DNA of 63,880 bases, filler included, from Folioceros fuciformis (Eukaryota), in assembly GCA_049999805.1 (NCBI GenBank). It is 9 parts of 9 records of this genome, joined end to end, with 100 filler letters (N's around TTAATTAATTAA, not from the genome) between each part and the next. Parts side by side here need not be neighbours in the genome. Positions count along the whole stretch, not along the records: positions 7,577 to 20,624 come from JBNGIO010002649.1; 8 more parts are not named here. One strand, 5' to 3'. Below, one piece after another: positions 9,951 through 34,010 of this stretch. Each line of letters opens with the position of its first letter. The first letter of the stretch is position 1. Both the position numbers and the translations under genes were made by a program. The notes below the pieces were generated by a model. That model was not told the DNA's origin, did not search any database, and worked only from the letters and a program-made list of their open reading frames with translations.

Positions 9951-10545
9951 CTAGTGAATTGGTTCAACATCAAATTGAGAAAAATCAAAATCACAAGTAT
10001 CAAAAGCATTTGGAGGATCTATAAAATGACTGTTTAAAATTGTTCTTGAAATTGTTTTATAAAAAGCTTCCGTAGGATGAAGACCATCCCAATTTAAGTA
10101 TTGATTTGGATTGTCGCACATTGTTGCATTTGGTGAACTACACATTGCGTTCGGATTAAAGTTATATTTTCCTTCTCCTCCACAACATGAAGAGTTTTGA
10201 GGTAAGAATGTAAGAAACTCTGCTGAACACCCAATGGGAGGCACATTAAAAACCAAAAAAATTCTAGCTCTTATATCACATAAGTCTCTCAAGCGTAGTA
10301 CAATTACTTCAACCACAGTAGGCACCATCATCACTAATTGTTCTGCTGAGTAATTATGAACAGCTATCGCTACGTTATAATCGTTGGCACCCATACTAAC
10401 AACATATAATCCCTTGGAAAAATGTGATTCATCTAGTACGTATCCACTCCACATTGATCCATAATTTGATTGACTTTGTGGGTCGACATAGAATTGCTTA
10501 AACTAATTCATTTGTTGGCAGAGATGAAAAGGAATATTACTCGCT
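9951..10545 (-). pseudogene. GDSL/SGNH esterase-lipase C-terminal fragment, intronless, internally deleted
   Basis: Motifs KGLYVVSMGANDY, ARIFLVFNVPPIGC, CCGGEGKYNFN, QYLNWDGLHPTEA (DxxH). The upstream part (IPFHLCQQMN*FKQF) has a stop. The GDSL block and the block between PPIGC and CCG are missing. Confidence 0.8.
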
Positions 10546-11262: not shown

Positions 11263-11427
11263 TAGAGAGAGATGGAAATATCACTAAAAAGTCCTCTAAA
11301 TTCTGGGAAAGTATGTCCGATGACGGGATGGGCCGTGCTGTGGCCGGTCCATGGAGGTGAGACTCCTTTCAACTTCCCCTTGATCCGGACAACCGCGTAT
11401 CGCTTTTTGTTGTAGCCAGCAGGGCGG

Positions 11428-14400
11428 ATGGCTATGGCAGGTTCGTCTGGGCCGCCGCGGCCATTCTTCTTCTTGTTTTCCTTGTTGCTGCTTCTCCTGC
11501 GTCCGCTGGCATCTGCGTCCGCTTCCCTTTGCACCGCTCCGCGTCCGGTAACGAACCTGCCGGAATCACCTCCTGCGTTGATCCGAGGATGAAAGTTGCT
11601 GCCATGTTTGCATTGGCGTGATGTTGCTGGCGTGTTTTGATGGAGCTCGAGCGATTTATTTTTTGAGAGTCGGTTTGCTGTTTTTTTGGAGTGCGTTTAG
11701 CGTTTGCAGAGGGGATGTGTTGTGTCTACTGTCCCTACCAAGCGTGGATGTAATTGAGGGTTGAACAGATCCAAGCGGCAGCAAATGTAGATCGATCTCC
11801 GCAGAATTGTTCGTTCCTGCATCCAGTACCCATTTCCACCCAGTTCGCACTGAGTTCAGATTCCACCGCAGGAGGACTATTCCCACCGTGGAGAATCTGC
11901 TAAGAAATGGTATCTGGAGAGGACAAAGCGTCGAACGCTTGGGAATTGGGGGTTAAGGAGCTGGTCAAACCTCAACAAAATCAAGCTGGCCCCCTCCGCA
12001 ATCGGGGGAGACTCGTCTGCGGAGGAGGTCAGCTACAGCTGATTTTAATGATCTCTTGGAGGCAAAGTGCTGAATCGTGCCCAAGATTTTGGACGTGACG
12101 TCCCTCCTTGAGTTGCAGTTTGTTCAATGGTCTCACAGAAGAACAGGAGGAGACAATGGCGCACCTCGGAAGTTCTTTCTCCGTTCAATCGAGAGTCCTT
12201 GGTGCCCTCCTGGAGGACTACGAAAGGACAGCTGTTGTCACTTGGGCTGTTTCGCTGCGGAAGACATGGAGAAGGAAGAGACAATCGCGGAGTTTCCCGT
12301 CCGTCATGGCTTTAATTCCTTGGGAGCAAGTAATCAGTGGGTGCTTTTCTTTCCGCGTTGTCTGATACCATCGTTGCGATGCAGCTGGCATCCTGTATCT
12401 CTGACGTCCTGGAAGTCGAGGACCCTAGTTCACTCGTGGAAACACCGTGGGAAATACGGCTCGCGACAAAGCTGCTGCGCGAACGGTATTGTAATGTCCC
12501 AGAGTTGCCGCCCAACATTCCTTACCTCCCTGTTTGATTGTTGCAAGACGCACATCTGGCTCGTAAACGTGCATGCAGTGCTAGAGAATCATCTCAATGG
12601 GCTCCATTTATCAAGTTATTGCCAAGCTATCTCCCTCTCCCTTTGTTTTTCTCATCTCTGGTACGGGATTCTGGCAGACCTGAAACTTAGCGTAGAAGTA
12701 GCCAGTCTAATGTTCTGCCATGGTTTTGACTTTCTACGGAACAAATGCTGCCAGGAGTTGAACAACATCGAAGATCCATATGTAATTGAGGAGGTGCATG
12801 CGATGAGAAAGTTTGCGCAGTCTGCATACCAAGTGTTGGATGAAGATGACATACCAGGGGTGAAGTTTAATGAATTTGGTATGCTGTGTGCGTATTTCTC
12901 TCTTAAGGTGTAGTCTTTAAAGAGTTTTTGGAATACTCTGTCACGGTAGCGTGTGTGCTGCGTGTTGTTACTAGTTCTTGGTTGACGACGCTTGCATCAA
13001 CTACTGTGTTGAAGTCCCCATTTCCATGTGTTCCAGTGTGGGCACTCTCTGTTGTCTACAGCCTGGCATGCAAGGTGGAAACAGCTCATAGACCTGTGCA
13101 TCTTATCCTACCATTTCTTAGCTCCCCTGGTGGTGAAGCTCAAGGTGTCGTCTGCAGTGTCTTTCGATTCTTCATTGATTACTCCTTATGTTGAAGACTT
13201 GTGCGATCATCCAAACACTCAACCGCCTCTCCTTCATATCTATGCAGTCATTCCTGATTATGTTTTTGGCAAGGTCCTTCTCAGGACAAATGGAGGAGTA
13301 GAGGAAGGAATGCTCCTATCCCTGAGCAACTCCATGAGATCCACAGCGGCCGAGCTAGTCTTCCGAGGTGTGCTTCTCTGGTGATGTAGATTGTGACAAA
13401 GGCATCTCTCCGTTGGAAGCTGTGTTTGGTTGTCTGAACATTGGGCTTCTGGCAGGGTCTGTACCAAAAGACAACCCACACAATGAAATATGTATTTTTC
13501 AGGACTTGAAGGTAACGTCTGTAAGCCCTTGCTTTCTGCCGGGGAGCCATCTGTTTGCTTCTTCTCCATGCAAGTTTCTCTCTGTCCTTCACTTTTGCAG
13601 GAACTGGTGGATTGGTACGTTGAAAGCGATGACAGCCTGAACAGCAATAAGCACTTGACCCTCACAGTAGTTCAAGATGTGATTGGGGCAATGAAATCAG
13701 AGTTTCAGGTGAACATGACGCGAACTGTGCCAATGCATGGCTTTGCCTTCAGAGCAGATGGCGCTGTCAATCCTCATATGCTATGTACATTCGCAGCTTT
13801 ATCTTTTGCCAAAAATATAATCGATCTTTCAAGTGAGAGCCAGGTTGGCTTTGATGGGGTGGCAATTGGTGACTTAGCTGTCAGAGAAGGCATAGAATGG
13901 AACTCAAGACTTCAGGAGTTGACAAAAGCGTGTGTAGCTCTCAGTACCAGCATACCTCAAGGCTGCCACCGCCTTCCATCACAGGATAGACATGTACAAG
14001 ATGCTCTTCTGTTTGCCATGGGAGCTATTCGCGGTCGTCTTCAATTTTTGCTGCACTCCTACCCAACCAGCCTGGGAGAGGACTATCTCATGCTTGCAGC
14101 AGCGTCATGGGAAGGTTATGCAGGGATCGGAACATCTCAAGCTTGTCCAACGTGCAGATGGCAGATTGAGCGGCTTGGTCAAAATGACTACCTGGCAGTG
14201 AACTTTCGGACTACCAAAAAGCTTCTGTTGCAGCAGATGATTTCCCAGCTTTCCTGCGGCTCAAGGGTTTCTGAGGACACTGAGCTTTTATCTCTTTTCG
14301 ATGGCGTTGAGACACAAAGCCAAAATGTTCAAGAGGTACGCAGAAAGTCTTGAGATACTGTCCAGTTGTGCTGCTCTGTCATACTAACAAGTTCTTCGAT

Positions 14401-16684
14401 CAAGATTAATGTACATCCAGGGGTCTGGACCGAGCTGAAAGGGAATTTATTAGTCTCTTCCATTTTGAACAGTTCTTGAGCTGGTGTGAAGAACAGAATT
14501 TTACAATATCGGGAAAGCTGGCCATTGTGGACATCAATGTGGAGGGAAAGCGAGAGGGAATTACTGATGAAAACAGGAGAGTGCGAGGAGTTGTTGCTGT
14601 TGAGGATATCTCACATGGTGACACATTATCGTCTTTACCTGTGAGCCATCATTTTATTTGCTTTGCCGGATAGGCAGAGTGAGCTAAGATGTCTGGTTAG
14701 GGGCGCTGCTTCAATACAGAACAGCTGCCTCTGACGTCTCTGCTGAGTCTCGTTATCGCGGATAGCTCTCAATCTCTCTCATGTGGCAGCTGAACATGGG
14801 GCTCTATGACAAGGAGTCAATGCATTTGTTGGATGGTTGGGATCGGGCGGCAGCTCGACTACTTCAAGAAAGGTCGTCTTCCAGTGACCCGTAACCGTTT
14901 TAAGGGCTGGTGACTTTATGAGTGCTCGAACCGGGTGTTAACTGTGGTTGCCATGTGCTTCAGGGCTCTAGGCGAGTCCTCAAGATGGGCTCCTTACATC
15001 AGAGCTCTACCATCAAGAGTGCCGACACCGATCAACTTGAAATCAAATGTAGCAATTGCGTATGCTTGAATTAGAGTGTTATGAGATCTCTTCATTGTTC
15101 TCACGACACGACCTGGTGTGCTTTTCATGTTTCAGGAACTAGATGAAGTGCAATGGTGGCCACTCTTACGAGAACTTGTGCAGGTTCGTAAGTCGATCAA
15201 GGAGAGCTATGCTCTGCTCGACGATGAAGTAACTGCATGGTCGACTTTCGAGGAGTTTCGTAAGCAATTTTGACGTACTTGTTACTCTCAGTTCAGTAAC
15301 CGGTGGCAGTTTCTATCGGCTACTGAAGCGTCCCCATGTAATGCACTGTTGTTGTAGGGTGGGCTGCAACAATTGTTCACAGTCGTGCGTTCACACTCCC
15401 CGTCACTGATGATGAGGAGTATGCCCCCTACGTGCTAATGCCATTCATGGACATGATCAACCATCATTATCACTACCAGGTCCGGGTCTTGAATTTGTTC
15501 CAAGACGTGCCACCGCAACGTAAAACATCAAACTGAGGCTAATTTGAGAGGTTTGCAGGCGGACTGGTCGTCTGAACCGGCTTGGCATGGTAAGCTCGAT
15601 ATAGTTGCCAGACGACCTTTGAGAAAGGGAGAGCAGCTTTTTGCGTCGTTTGGACCAAGATCAAATGACAATCTGTTTCTCTACTACGGTAACTGATACT
15701 CGTGTTTGCACCACGTCGTTCACGCGGTAGAGGAAATGATTAGTCAGTACATCCTCTGGGTTTTTGCTTTTCCAGGCTTTGTGCTTGAAGATAATCCTTG
15801 GGACACGGCTCAAATTTTCCCATCTTTTGAGGTTGGTACAACGTGACATCAGACAAGATGAGAAGAGGCCAGCTCGGTCCTTGAGAAGAGGCCAGCTCGG
15901 TCCTTGGTAGTTAGAGGCTGGTCGGTCTGCTCCTTGAGGGTCTGAAAAGGGAAAGCACTGCCGTGTCTTGCAGGAGAGCGTAAGATGGTTTTTGCAGCTT
16001 TGGAGTACTAGTTGCGGACAAGCGCTCAAGAGCCAACCCGCATCGACGACATGCAGTGGGCAACAATGGCATACAATCTGGTCAAAAGTGAGTCAAACTG
16101 TGGGTAAAATCGGTGACGGTTCTTCAGGACAGAGCAAGGAATGGGTGCACCTTATCAATCATTGGGCGGATTTTGGATTCCAATTTCTGCCATACAGTCC
16201 GTCTCCATCGATCTACACCAGGGGTGTTACAGATCCCAGTCTCCTGGGTGCACTCACAGCTGTGGCGGAGGCCACCTTTACTCCGACGGTTGTTGAGGAT
16301 TACCCCTTGGGAAATATTTCGACGGCCTTGAGAACCTTCTTCAGCTGCCTCAGGGAGAACAAGCGTGTGCGGAGTGTAGCGGAATGGAAACGTTGCACAG
16401 TCCAGTTAGTTCCAGTGTTTTCATCATGTGACCCTACTCAAAGGTTCAAGCTCATCGCAGAGACATCAATCGCTGCTCGGTGTTTTCAGGTACTCCAGTC
16501 CATGCCCACGACGATAGAGGAAGATGAACGACTATTGGAGGGAGAATGTGCGTCGGGCTTGGATTGTGAGAGCTCACATGCCAAACTACTTCAACTGACA
16601 ACGAGGTATAGATACATGAAGAAACTGCTCCTGCAGGGGAACATCAACAAGCTGCTTGGTGTCTCGCGAGGCAACCTGGTATAG
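11428..16684 (+). CDS. Multi-exon LSMT/SETD3-like protein with predicted signal peptide and two tandem SET + Rubisco-substrate-binding modules
   Basis: Exon 1 (11428-11547, MAMAGSSGPPRPFFFLFSLLLLLLRPLASASAS...) can splice in frame to 11872-12027 and then 12119. Module 1: FVQW...AAEDMEKEETIAEFP, LATKLLRER, SQWAPFIKLLP, WALSVVYS, YPTSLGEDY, RTTKKLLL. Module 2 from 14473: FLSW...RGVVAVEDI, SRWAPYIRALP, HSRAF, PFMDMINH, GEQLFASFGPRSNDNLFLYYGF, MPTTIEEDE, YRYMKKLLL. Some exon boundaries are inferred. Confidence 0.8.
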
Positions 16685-17222
16685 CTGAAGCTGAAGTCTC
16701 TGGGATGGCAGGCTTCTTTCTTTGGATGCTAACAACCAACCACCGTTGTCAGTGGAACTAGTTTTTATTTCGTGAGCGAGATCAAACCAATTCAACTCAT
16801 TCTGCGACATTGCAGTATTGTTTTTGCGTAGAATGGGACATCATTCAATACAGACGAAGAACCTTGTAAGATGTCGCAAACCAGAGTCAGAGCGAAGACA
16901 AGGCACAGCCTGAAGCAGAAGCAGAAGCGCGAACCGAGACAGGCACAGCCTGACGCAAAAGCGAGCGCCAAGACAGGCTCAGCCTGACGCAGAAGAGATC
17001 AAACAGGAAGAGAAAGAACCTAAGGCGGTGCAGACACCTGCACCCCGTACTCCGACATTGCAGTAATGCAGTGTAGAGATAATCAGTCCCCTCTTTACAA
17101 AGCAGCTCGGCAGAGTGTTCATTATGAAAGTGCAAGTTCCGGCTAAGGACCATCTCAAGAACGAGGACTCTCACGCAACCCGCTGAGAGCACTCCTGTAC
17201 AAAATCCTACGTGATAAGCAAG

Positions 17223-19167
17223 CTATCCAGAGGGTGGTTCCGTGCCATCGTGGAGAGCACAACAGACTGTTGCCTTGAGATGACCGTGATAGGTCCGTAT
17301 AGCCTCCCCTGTTTGTATCTCCCACAGCCTGGCCGTTGCGTCAGATGACGCTGATGACAAAACAGCAAAGAAAAAATAAGTCAAGACTGCTAGAGAATTG
17401 ACCTTTGCAAAATTGGTCGATTGGAGTCTCCTTTCAGGACGACGTAGATACGTACCTGTGACAAGGAAAGCGCCATCGACCGAGAACACACAATCCCAGA
17501 CCCACCTTTGATGACCTGCAAATAGAGCTAGATAAAGGATCAGACCGTTGAGAAATTGTGCAAGCCGTTGCCTACGCGCTCATGGAAAAGCCCCAAACCA
17601 GACAAATTACCTTCTAGGGTGCGCTCGAGTTTGAACCCTTCAACATTCCAAATCTTCACGGTCTTGTCAGAAGATGTTGTAGCTAGGTAGCTACGGATGA
17701 AACCAGCCAGTTTGGTTAGTGGTGATCATCAACACTGACGGATTCACCGCTAAATCTCGAAATGCAGGTAGGAAGGCACACCGGTTTGACTCGCAGTACT
17801 CCGGTGACAGGAGACACTTCAGAATGTAGGAGTTGTGCGCCTGGAGCTTCTGTAGCGGCTCAAAATGAGTCATCATCTACAGGGGAGCCGTGCAACTTTT
17901 GTCATTCACTTTAGTCAGGGTGTATTCTGGAAGACAGAAAGATGCAGTGGTAGATGACGAAAACCAGGCTACTTGCTCACCTGATTGCCACGCAGAAGGC
18001 TCCATACATAGCATACACCACTGTTATTAGCTGCAACAACCAAGCTGCCATCCCACATCACTGTTAAGGACCTGACAGCAGTGTCCACCTCTGGTACCTG
18101 GTAGACACAGACCGTTGGTCACATTAACCCAGCCAGCAAACAAGATTGTTGAATGCCAATGAACTCAGAGAAGGGATCCCCTCTAAACCCACCAACTCGA
18201 AGCTGCAAGAGTTGGCTGTAAGATCCCAAACTCTAATATTCCCATTTTGATCTCCAGAAATCAACTCTTGCTGCAGAAACGACATCTATCGGATTATTCA
18301 AAAAGATAATACATCCAAAGAAACGTAAGAGCAGTGCGCGCCATCGCCAAGGTGATGCTAGAATGGAAAATGCTGGGAAGACGTGTCTTAAGACTCATGG
18401 ATATTGTACCTGATTAGGGTGAAGCACAACCGTATTAACAGCCGCTCGGCTCTCGTACTCTCTTTGACATCCTGGGGCACTGAAGATATCCCACAGGAGT
18501 CCTATAAGGGATTGACAGACAAGGCGAAAACACCACCTATCCAACCAACCAGTACAAACAGATCAACCGAAACAACAATGCGACTCAAGGTACCGGAGAT
18601 CCCAGATTTTGACGGTGCCATCCTCTGACCCGGAGTACATCCATTTCCCATCGCACTGGAACCCCACAGCTGTAACGTTGTTGGAGTGCTCGTAGGTTAA
18701 GACCTAAAGAGCAGTTTTCCAGGGCGGCAGAAAAACGTAAACGAGAGACCAGCTGGGATACCAACATTGTGTACCAATTGCAAATGCGCAGTTCAGCTCA
18801 TGGGAGACCACCGGTATATCCCGCAGCTACAAACAGCCTAAGGAAGCAATCATACTGGACGGAAATTCGCTAACTCACCGGAGGAAGCAAATTCGAGTTC
18901 ACCTCGTATAGGCGAATGTGTGGGTTGCCAGCAGCTGCTAGAAACTGCTTGTTAGGCGTGATTTCAAGCTTGTTCACTTGCTGCATGCAGAAAAACCGCT
19001 TTGCAAGCGTGAGCGCAAGCTCAAGATCGAGCACGTCCTGCAGCAGTGAGAACACGTACAGAGTCGGGGTATTGCAGGGTTTTGTAGTTGCGCCCGCTGG
19101 TGGCCTCCCAAAACCGAATGGTGTGGTCATAACCAGCTGTGGCCAGCACCACAGAAGGTTGCGGCAT
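17223..19167 (-). CDS. LST8: Target of rapamycin complex subunit LST8 (WD40), multi-exon
   Basis: Exons translate as [117 protein letters not shown]. These match the plant LST8 sequence as I recall it. Confidence 0.95.
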
Positions 19168-20089
19168 CTCCTCCTTACCGTCCTGTCTGCCTCATTCCAT
19201 AGGCAAGTCCCCGCTGCAGCAATGAGCTTGTCTTCAAGCACGGACAGGAGGCTTCATTGAAAATTTGAGCCAAGAGTTCCAGTTTGAGATGAGTGACCAC
19301 AGGACATCTGACAGTCAGACGAACTTGCCCGTCGAGCCTGTTGCGGCGTCATCGGTAGGTTTAACAAATGGAGAAACATGTTGACTGCCACACCTCATGT
19401 TTTCCATTCCACGTGCGAATTCCAGGCGTTGGAATCCGGTACTGTATTATCTTATGGGCAGGACTTATGATGAGTGTGCAAACATGATGACTTATTTGAT
19501 ATTTATCTTTTATCAAGATAACATTTGACTCTGCTTAATACAGATTATTATCTATCAAATAAAATCAAAGCACGTGCAATTATTAAAAAAACTAATCTCA
19601 AAAAACATTTCTCATGAATCAAGCTAAGAAATACTAAGGTCTTATGTGTAAAGGATGCTAACTTGCCTAGCCTAAGTTGGAAAAAGTGAAGCCTTCAATC
19701 TTAATTAATACCTAGAGAGTTTCGTAGGACTTTGTATTACAAAAAGTAAAACTATAAATATATTCATAAAGTAATGGCACAAGTGAAATAAGGTGAAAAT
19801 TAATAGTAGAAAGGTGAAAGCTAAATCTAGAGTTATCTTGATGAAGAAGCAAGTATGCTTTTTGCTGCCTTTGGAAACAAGATGTGTGCTCCAGGCAAAA
19901 CCTCCTAAGAAGGATGGAGTTGTAATGACCACTAGTATTCTGAGCTGAGTGGTGTGTATCATTCCCAACTTTAGCAGTGGCTTAGCTGTGGAGTATAAAT
20001 AGGCCAGTGTTAAGGTCTTGAGGACTTACACTAATACACGGAGAGAGAGAGAGGCAGATAGTGAGAAGTCTAGCCTTGAGACATAGTTG

Positions 20090-20724: not shown

Positions 20725-22032
20725 CCAAGAAAGGTTATAGCTGAAATGTTGAGTTGCGCCAGAGTTAAGATAAAGACTCTCATCCTTCTTTGATGAGTTG
20801 GCATGATCCGCATTGATAAAGCACATAAATGTGTGTTCTTGTTGAGTCTTATCACTGACTTGATTAGCTTGAGATGATTTCTCCTTCTTCAAGTCTACCA
20901 ACCTGGTTTTACATTCCTTTGCATGATGACCTGGCTTCTTGCAATAATAGCAGGATCCTTTCACCTTATTGTTTGTGCTTGTATCCTTCGTCTTGTCTGT
21001 AGATTTGGGTTGCGTGCCCTTATGGTGGGGTGCACTCTTCTTAGAGAAGAATAATGAGGCTTTGACCCCTTGTGCCTGGGAAGCATTATGGAGTTCCTCT
21101 TGCAAGAGGAATGCAACCACCTCGTCGAATGTTGGTTCATAAGCTTTGAGTTCATAGCTATAGATGACCTAAGCTTTGAGTTCATAGCTATAGATGACCT
21201 GTAGGATACCAGAAAGTGTTTGTACAATTGTGGCAGGCTATACAACAGCGTTGTGATCATCTTGCCTTCTGAGGGTTCAATGTTTGCCTCTCTCATTTTG
21301 TTTACTAAGCTTTCTAGCTTGTTGACATGGTCTTGAATACTGTCACCTTCAACCATCTTGAATGAGGAGAGTTTACATTTGAGCAACATATTATTTGCCA
21401 AGCTCTTGCGTTCATAGGTGTCATACAATGTTTCCGATGCTTCACGCGAAGTCTGACAGTTACTCATTTTAGGGAATATGCTATCTGCTAGGTATAAGAT
21501 TATATTGGCCAAAGCCCTATCGTTGTTTCCATATCCTTTGGTGTATGATTTGCTGGAAGTCCATCTTGAACATACTTCCACAATCCTTTGCCAATAATAA
21601 GAGCCTTAAACTTCATCTTCCATGATGTGAAGTTCTTGCTATCAAACTTCTCTACAAGACACGTAGTATCCATGCTCGCGTTATAAGCGAATAAATAGGA
21701 TAACTTCCTCGCACCAATAACTATCACTAAGCTTCACACTTGCACAAGCAAACACCTAGTCTGCGAAGCCACACTATGCAGGAGAAGCAAGGAAAGATAG
21801 TTCTACACAAGGTCATGTCGAGTATTCTACGCATCTACTGAACTTATGTACTTGGGCTCTAATACCATGCTAAAAACAATGAGTCCCGAGATCAATCTCT
21901 GGTTTAGTACATTCAGATTGATAGCATATACATACATATATAGCCTTCAAGCATGACAATACCCTCGTTGTGGATAAACTTACAGCATTCTAGTCTAGAT
22001 GTGTTGCTACAAAACCCTATGGATTTCTAACA
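20725..22032 (-). mobile_element. 5' end of a Ty1/copia element: 165-bp 5' LTR (21868-22032), PBS, degenerate gag/protease
   Basis: On the minus strand the LTR reads TGTTAGAAA...TTTTTAGCA, followed directly by PBS TGGTATTAGAGC (21856-21867, one mismatch to tRNA-iMet). Gag motifs NFTSWKMKF, LLYSLP, CYYCKKPGHHAKEC, LYLNSGATQH. Confidence 0.9.
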
Positions 22033-33379: not shown

Positions 33380-34010
33380 CAGGAATTTTCGGCTAGAGGC
33401 AAGAAAAGAGATGCGTGGAAAGAGCATCATGTGATAAACCTCATTCACGTAAAAGGTGGGAGATCAAATTTGACAAAACTCCAAAACAAGGTTGGCCTTT
33501 TGCTATAGTTCAAGAATGAATAGCAGCAAATTTCAAGTTCTTGTCTCACAATTTTCCTACCCCTCTAGGATTTAACATTTGGAGTAAGGTAGCTGTAGCA
33601 GTAGTTGCAATTTGCCATGATTTTGATAAGAATTCGAAGGCCACTAGACAAAAATGGAAATTGATCTATGAGGACTACAAGGTGAACAAAGCTTACAATG
33701 CCGTATCAAGCAACAAAAGGTCTAAGAAGTGTGCATGGTTTGATATTGTTCATCTTTATATGCATAACCATATTCACAATCGTGTGTGAGGCTCATGCCT
33801 CTTCACACAAGAGGTCAAGTGTGAACAATTCTACACTAAGTTGGGCTAGCAAAGAGGACATTGTTAAAAGAGAAAGACCTCTTAAGAAAATTCAAGTGAT
33901 GCTATTAGCTTATTGAGCTCCATGCCCAAGAAACTAGAAGCTCTTAAAGAGGAGAAGGTAGCATTACTAGAAACTTTAGTTGCCTCTTTGGCCAAAAGTT
34001 TCAAGAATCA
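33380..34010 (+). pseudogene. Degenerate Myb/SANT (trihelix-type) ORF, possibly a PIF/Harbinger transposon remnant
   Basis: IWSKVAVAV...KATRQKWKLIYEDYK...CAWFDIVH fits the W-x-KW-x-Y/WF pattern of trihelix Myb-like domains. Broken by stops. Confidence 0.5.

Follow-up and report, generated by a model that had tools for sequence, protein, structure and literature searches.

The window, by which we mean the whole stretch of Folioceros fuciformis DNA that was analysed (63,880 nucleotides, filler included), carries on its plus strand a gene of 18 exons that extends from 11428 to 16684 and has a predicted product of 1,086 amino acids. The initial annotation had placed a SET protein here, which stands, but the real gene is larger than was then proposed and encodes two SET modules in tandem. 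Its main features are the following.

11428..11547, + strand: exon 1, aa 1-40; predicted signal peptide, then the conserved Cys35
11548..11871, + strand: intron 1, 324 nt, GTAACG..CAG, phase 0
11872..12027, + strand: exon 2, aa 41-92; family-specific N-terminal segment with the [FY]SH motif; joint 12027->12119 in run X1
12119..14335, + strand: module 1, exons 3-10, aa 93-594; degenerate LSMT-like SET core and helical C-domain
14336..14472, + strand: intron 10, GT..AG joint, depth 81.5 in run X1
14473..16684, + strand: module 2, exons 11-18, aa 595-1086, stop 16682-16684; SET and Rubisco-LSMT substrate-binding domains
15649..15651, + strand: codon of Phe819, at the column of the SET catalytic tyrosine (SETD3 Tyr313)

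The exon structure was compared with contigs from sequencing run X1, the RNA nature of which was guessed and not recorded, and which covers 0.64 of the sampled words of 11300-16800. GT..AG joints in these contigs coincide with at least 13 of the 17 modelled introns (15 of 21 joints listed), which indicates that the run contains spliced molecules. All seven internal joints of module 2 are present, and the introns without a joint among the 15 of 21 listed are numbers 1, 4, 5 and 9. Splicing of intron 10 drops an in-frame stop at 14351-14353 and thereby fuses the two modules. A reading with two genes, the first ending at the stop at 14351, was rejected because RNA contigs splice 14335->14473 and the orthologs are single chains of 960-1,120 aa. 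A donor for exon 3 at 12341 was also rejected, since the RNA places it at 12299.

Exon 1 ends with CCG|GTAACG in phase 0 and exon 2 opens in frame at 11872, so that the phase-0 donor of the initial annotation does lead in frame to the SET exons, across a GT..AG intron. The RNA check that had been proposed for this splice gave a divided answer. The joint 11547->11872 is absent among the run X1 joints listed (15 of 21), whereas one contig starts at 11871, a single base ahead of exon 2, as would be expected where two upstream forms with one common base meet at the acceptor. Among the nine in-frame ATG/donor pairs between 11431 and 11860, a one-base suffix match occurs only at the donor at 11548 (two pairs), and in this indirect way the exon 1-2 joint in Folioceros fits the contig start. 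The depth of run X1 is about 35 in intron 1 and about 23 in exon 1; the RNA cover of the intron probably stems from an unspliced paralog, which would account for much of it, and from retention. A short 5' UTR intron could directly precede the ATG; its possible borders are a strong donor-like GAG|GTGAGA at 11357 and the TAG/CAG acceptors at 11415-11422.

The paralogous copy (L004:556-4319; G000:C6149) is about 88-93% identical to the gene. It has a net indel of -13 nt in exon 1 and +1 insertions in exons 2 and 3, exons 5 and 12-15 were not recovered, and its variants occur in run X1 contigs that are largely unspliced; it looks like a transcribed pseudogene. A third fragment, at a contig end (L003 / L005 end; G000:C260:2592-2668), is 91% identical to part of exon 3. 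Downstream of the SET gene lies a convergent WD40 gene (17223-19200, minus strand) that from its translation we take to resemble LST8; one X1 contig spans from 15972 to past 17100, and the 3' ends of the two genes may overlap. Pfam matches further identify a GDSL lipase-like ORF at 9951-10502 and a copia-type gag ORF at 20961-21605, both on the minus strand of the window.

The leader and its conservation in land plants

Exon 1 translates as quoted in the initial annotation, and the leader features claimed there are present. Arg11 is the single Arg of the n-region, the h-region with its Phe/Leu core covers approximately aa 13-24, and Ala-x-Ala sites occur after aa 30 and after aa 32. The Kyte-Doolittle maximum is 3.08 (12-residue mean, from aa 13), a value that is reached by 4 of the 494 ATG-led open frames of 40 codons on both strands of the window, two of the four being exon 1's own two ATGs. 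The other two hydrophobic ATG-led N-termini, at 33698 and 42803 (+), are possibly signal peptides of unrelated genes. A scan of hydropathy and residue patterns thus finds in exon 1 the basic n-region, the h-region and the small residues at -3/-1 of a signal peptide, and the non-hydrophobic, Ser/Thr/Arg-rich N-terminus of a transit peptide is absent from the exon 1 leader.

The DNA of exon 1 is CT-rich and a second frame is likewise hydrophobic and signal-peptide-like. The window alone is therefore no proof of a signal peptide, and it is conservation in orthologs that carries the claim. The second frame itself was rejected as a coding frame: it has no in-frame ATG unless an extra upstream splice is assumed, its phase is wrong at 11548, and no donor fits the contig start at 11871.

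Orthologs were found by using a core exon of 40 aa as query, which matched 16 of 16 candidates; a search for longer proteins with words of exon 10 as query matched none of 5,580 candidates. Full-length chains (961-1,107 aa) came from Riccia (2), Marchantia, Calypogeia, Physcomitrium (XP_024402414), Adiantum, Ceratopteris, Pteridium and three further records, and orthologs of Diphasiastrum and M. paleacea were added to the core-exon set. When one Physcomitrium chain is counted, there are 13 full-length orthologs, of which eight, together with two N-terminal fragments, have a hydrophobic leader. The leader that the initial annotation proposed to look for in other plants is thus kept from moss to ferns, in moss, liverworts, a lycophyte and ferns, and three of the eight leader-bearing orthologs sit on transcript-sized records. 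Each of the eight full-length leaders continues into a C-x-[FA]-P..[FY]SH motif, the halves of which are split between exon 1 and exon 2 in the window gene. The other five full-length orthologs (P0007, P0008, P0012, P0013 and P0016, with both Riccia chains among them) and one fragment have no leader as annotated, and these five also lack the first half of the Cys-Pro..SH motif. Since M. paleacea P0173, a member of the 90% cluster of P0012, does have a leader, mis-annotation is likely for Marchantia, the one genus in which it is indicated.

The hydrophobicity of the N-terminus completely separates the 11 intact leaders (the window, eight full-length orthologs and two fragments; 2.25-3.25) from 30 transit-peptide-like neighbours (<=1.88); the rows are related, and hence no p-value was used. 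Long hydrophobic runs occur in two orthologs (19-mer 2.4-2.6). Inside the chains no clear membrane segment was found (best internal 19-mer 1.3-1.8), and a C-terminus of the HDEL/KDEL type was absent in all ten chains checked, which were the window protein, eight orthologs and the algal relative P0020. The listed model of the Marchantia gene Mp8g03600 (P0171) has 793 aa and is without the N-terminal ~300 residues, signal peptide included, and this truncation may explain why the feature was overlooked.

Tandem modules, active sites and relatives

The eight exons of module 1 and the eight of module 2 have pairwise lengths of 180/168, 101/83, 82/85, 124/124, 108/122, 120/130, 56/56 and 735/711, with equal start phases in seven of the eight pairs, and an HMM of module 2 detects module 1 with E values of 1e-20 to 1e-30. 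The SET profile PF00856 and the Rubisco LSMT substrate-binding profile PF09273 both match all 11 orthologs examined at E<0.1, ten of them with a SET score above the Pfam cut-off; the window exons match weakly.

Module 2 has kept the motifs RG (632-633), SRAF, D-x-x-N-H with NH at 782-783, and YG (831-832) in all 13 rows. Module 1 is without SAM-binding motifs: NH occurs in none of the 13 rows, RG is not conserved and YG is lost too, and the Tyr found at its catalytic column in 8 of 13 rows stands in a core from which NH is absent. When the catalytic-Tyr column of module 2 is set by alignment to SETD3 (Tyr313) and SETD6, it holds Phe in 13 of 13 rows (Phe819 in the window), so that module 2 lacks the catalytic Tyr of a canonical SET lysine methyltransferase. 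The same column has Tyr in 120 and Phe in four of 126 other cores, and the four include two Marchantia family members and Spirogloea P0020. Phe759 of module 2, at the column of SETD3 Asn256, is shared with 89 of the 126 LSMT-like cores. The SET2 core has 85 invariant columns out of 259 against 29 out of 260 in the SET1 core, and conservation so far above that of SET1 is what a functional active site would be expected to show. In all 14 rows eight Cys columns are invariant, with Cys266 and Cys531-x-x-Cys534 in module 1. N-glycan sequons account for 102 of 588 Asn in the family and 55 of 521 in the neighbouring clade, in rows that are not independent; the window protein has only three.

The position of the family was examined with a profile search of 1.84 billion representatives, which gave 5,548 matches, of which the best 150 were examined. 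The top non-tandem match among these 150 is Spirogloea P0020, a protein of 583 aa with a leader and one module that is 36% identical to moss module 2. In a tree of 50 rows, module 2 joins P0020 and Mesotaenium P0027, both leader-bearing, with support of 100/99, and this group adjoins a clade of seven rows bearing leaders and HDEL/HEEL termini (88/96). Module 1 forms a long-branched clade without resolved position, another leader-bearing algal clade falls apart from the module 2 and HDEL clades, and a single origin of all leader-bearing SET proteins was not recovered in this tree. In a quick tree of 133 rows, 10 of the 23 rows in two nearby algal clades (named members: Spirogloea, Mesotaenium and Closterium) lie above the leader cut-off, compared with 0 of 43 rows in the transit-peptide-like clade, and four of the 23 have a terminal HDEL/HEEL. 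By its named members the family ranges over Zygnematophyceae, bryophytes, a lycophyte and ferns. No seed plant occurs among the matches listed with species names, and the family is likely absent from angiosperms; matches in the Atlas were generic LSMT-like clusters only. The simplest history would be an algal secretory protein with a single module, followed by tandem duplication in the ancestor of land plants.

Several other proteins with a leader were seen during this search. P0025, P0049, P0038, P0040, P0167 and P0168, of which the last three are from Spirogloea, combine one SET module and a leader with a C-terminal HDEL/HEEL. The four that were checked (P0025, P0049, P0038 and P0040) have kept the catalytic Tyr, and HDEL/HEEL single-module proteins with this Tyr are, judged from their sequences, good candidates for canonical ER-resident lysine methyltransferases. 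Outside the family clades, leader-bearing LSMT-like proteins are P0141 (Gefionella), P0147 and P0155 (Soliformovum). The C-terminus of P0147 is KSEL, and in P0141 the column of the catalytic Tyr is again occupied by Phe. It may be that secretory SET proteins originated more than once.

Probable secretory entry and possible functions

It is very probable that the protein enters the secretory pathway, as the initial annotation had inferred from exon 1, and the conserved leaders of the orthologs as well as the HDEL/HEEL-bearing algal relatives speak for this location. By sequence it belongs to the LSMT-like fold family. With Rubisco/aldolase LSMT, SETD6 and SETD3 it shares a SET core with insert and a helical substrate-binding domain (PF00856 and PF09273) and, in module 2, the RG, SRAF, NH and YG motifs; profile matches to solved structures were obtained for SETD3 (E 1e-19), pea LSMT (8e-12) and SETD6 (3e-10). 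These proteins have either no leader or a transit peptide, whereas the family described here has a signal-peptide-like leader, tandem modules, Phe in place of the catalytic Tyr and many invariant Cys. Another green-lineage LSMT-like protein, pTAC14/PAP7, is the top solved-structure match of single-module P0020 (E 1e-14) and is thought to serve structurally in the plastid RNA polymerase; it differs in being a subunit of that polymerase, with one module and with Tyr kept at the catalytic column.

METTL9 is a protein methyltransferase of the secretory pathway with histidine as acceptor, and neither METTL9 nor the fungal enzyme NHMT is known to have the SET fold. The diatom BacSETs, a subject of Nemoto et al. 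in 2020, reportedly bear ER signal peptides. According to the available parts of the sources, BacSETs are co-expressed with silica-vesicle genes and were proposed to methylate wall proteins or polyamines (bioRxiv 10.1101/2020.11.23.393678; PMC11554505; PMC11151724). They resemble the present family as SET proteins tied to the building of extracellular structure; they are diatom-specific by definition, and an activity is not reported in those parts. NHMT illustrates that protein methylation exists in the fungal ER, but it is described, in the portion of the text at hand, as having a histidine acceptor and seven membrane segments (PMC10349129). For the loss of active-site residues, MLL5, SETD5 and Set3 offer a parallel: the accessible sections report the change of active-site Tyr to Phe, loss of NH and inactivity, and for MLL5 the loss of NH and of active-site tyrosines together with absence of activity (PMC5094779). 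Module 1 is likewise without NH; these are nuclear histone-type SET domains, however, and module 2 retains NH and the other cofactor motifs. A literature search, with subscription journals and supplements outside its scope, gave nothing relevant on a secretory LSMT-like family or its gene names, in agreement with the earlier remark that no described example was recognised. The gene could still be listed in supplementary tables, for instance of SET-family surveys or of moss secretomes; the family is real, conserved and apparently undescribed.

What the protein does after entry is less certain than its location. A role in protein methylation or methyl binding had been suggested before; the SAM motifs of module 2 agree with this, while the catalytic Tyr has been lost, and since module 1 is without cofactor motifs and module 2 has Phe for Tyr, simple lysine methylation is less certain than secretory entry. 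As the best mechanism we tentatively propose a slow, client-specific, SAM-dependent methyltransferase of the ER/Golgi lumen with a dead docking module. The protein would enter the ER in an SRP-dependent manner, its leader being cut off near aa 30-32 or kept as a short signal anchor, and disulfides would form between the invariant cysteines. Module 2 would bind lumenal SAM and methylate an amine of a single secretory client or of a small number of them, and the missing Tyr hydroxyl would slow the reaction; the LSMT-type Phe759 makes lysine the most likely acceptor. Module 1, presumably a duplicate from the land-plant ancestor, would act as a docking site for the client or as the mimic of a dimer partner. 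Without HDEL and without an internal membrane segment, the land-plant form would be expected to move on to the Golgi or wall unless it is held by a partner. We know of no methyl-lysine client in the secretory pathway of these plants. That SAM reaches the plant Golgi lumen is stated in the available part of a preprint (bioRxiv 10.1101/2021.07.06.451061). This tentative mechanism is in line with the leaders, the HDEL relatives, the invariant Cys, the extra sequons and the conserved SET2 core, and by analogy with SETD3 Y313F, for which the accessible text gives remaining activity with a kcat ~36-fold lower and a KM for SAM ~58-fold higher (PMC6400499). Against it are the lack of the catalytic Tyr in every member, the five of 13 orthologs that are leaderless as annotated, the number of only three sequons, the failure to recover a single leader origin, and the exon 1-2 joint that is not among the joints listed (15 of 21). 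The loss of Tyr in MLL5 goes with inactivity and may also count against it, though this parallel is weakened by the additional loss in MLL5 of NH, which module 2 keeps (PMC5094779, in its accessible sections).

It is possible, though somewhat unlikely, that the protein is secretory and not catalytic at all. Both modules would then be pseudo-enzymes, and module 2, located in the ER, Golgi or wall, would bind SAM/SAH or a peptide and function as scaffold, chaperone or sensor, comparable to pTAC14/PAP7. The fixation of Phe, seen in all 13 land-plant rows as well as in Spirogloea, the missing RG, NH and YG of module 1 and the top structural match of P0020 to pTAC14/PAP7 would all suit such a role, and the absence of a retention signal from ten of ten C-termini means that the protein could end up in the wall, a place in which SAM is not likely to occur. 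However, module 2 shows no variation in its remaining cofactor and channel motifs, the conservation of which is twice that of the rest, and the Tyr to Phe change in SETD3 gives a weakened and not a dead enzyme (PMC6400499, as far as the available text goes). A different use of the same substitution is unlikely but can be envisaged, namely that Phe adapts the site to a nucleophile other than lysine in the secretory pathway; this might be histidine, an N-terminal amine, a lipid head group or a sugar hydroxyl like O-3 of arabinogalactan-protein rhamnose. Here the Tyr to Phe change is fixed and not drifting, and SETD3 illustrates that the fold can turn to histidine, but Phe759, which fills the SETD3 Asn256 column as it does in 89 of 126 cores, favours a lysine-type channel. 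To our knowledge there is no O-methylating SET domain. According to the part of a preprint that was available, 3-O-methylrhamnose occurs in algae, bryophytes, ferns and gymnosperms; angiosperms never contain it, and the enzyme that forms it has yet to be identified (bioRxiv 10.1101/2025.03.14.643249). The named range of the family, without a named angiosperm, resembles this distribution; such a range is shared by many traits and is weak evidence, with gymnosperms established on the sugar side only, and the same text proposes DUF579 proteins for rhamnose.

The location itself can be questioned in two ways. The leader might direct the protein to the plastid via the ER or to the vacuole, or serve as an uncleaved anchor with the SET modules in the cytosol, which we regard as very unlikely: there is a large related clade with transit-peptide-like N-termini, the land-plant forms are without HDEL and two orthologs have long hydrophobic runs, but the leaders are short and hydrophobic instead of Ser/Thr- and Arg-rich, and the invariant Cys, extra sequons and HDEL-bearing relatives suit a lumenal fold. 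Alternatively, exon 1 could be pyrimidine-rich untranslated DNA and the protein could start downstream. The two hydrophobic frames, the RNA cover of intron 1, the lack of joint 11547->11872 among the joints listed (15 of 21) and the leader missing in five of 13 orthologs as annotated are compatible with such an artefact, which nevertheless is extremely improbable, as a leader with the same Cys-Pro motif stands at this place in eight orthologs, which represent four plant lineages, exon 2 lacks an in-frame Met, and the contig start fits the donor at 11548 alone.

In its widest form, the interpretation would be that a SET fold entered the secretory lumen before land plants, swapped Tyr for Phe and gained a non-lysine acceptor, the boldest version being that this is the missing 3-O-methylrhamnose enzyme for arabinogalactan proteins of seed-free plants. 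This is decidedly unlikely, but if true it would provide the first O-methylating SET domain. The compartments from which SET methyltransferases are known are the nucleus, the cytosol and the plastid. If a conserved SET family does enter the ER of streptophyte algae and seed-free plants, this would suggest that the plant secretory pathway or wall involves a modification or binding step that has so far been overlooked, one that was present at the move to land and is apparently absent from flowering plants. The fixed Tyr to Phe change in an otherwise highly conserved site is a natural experiment on the ways in which catalysis by SET domains may be altered. Since both Marchantia and Physcomitrium have orthologs, the question is directly testable.
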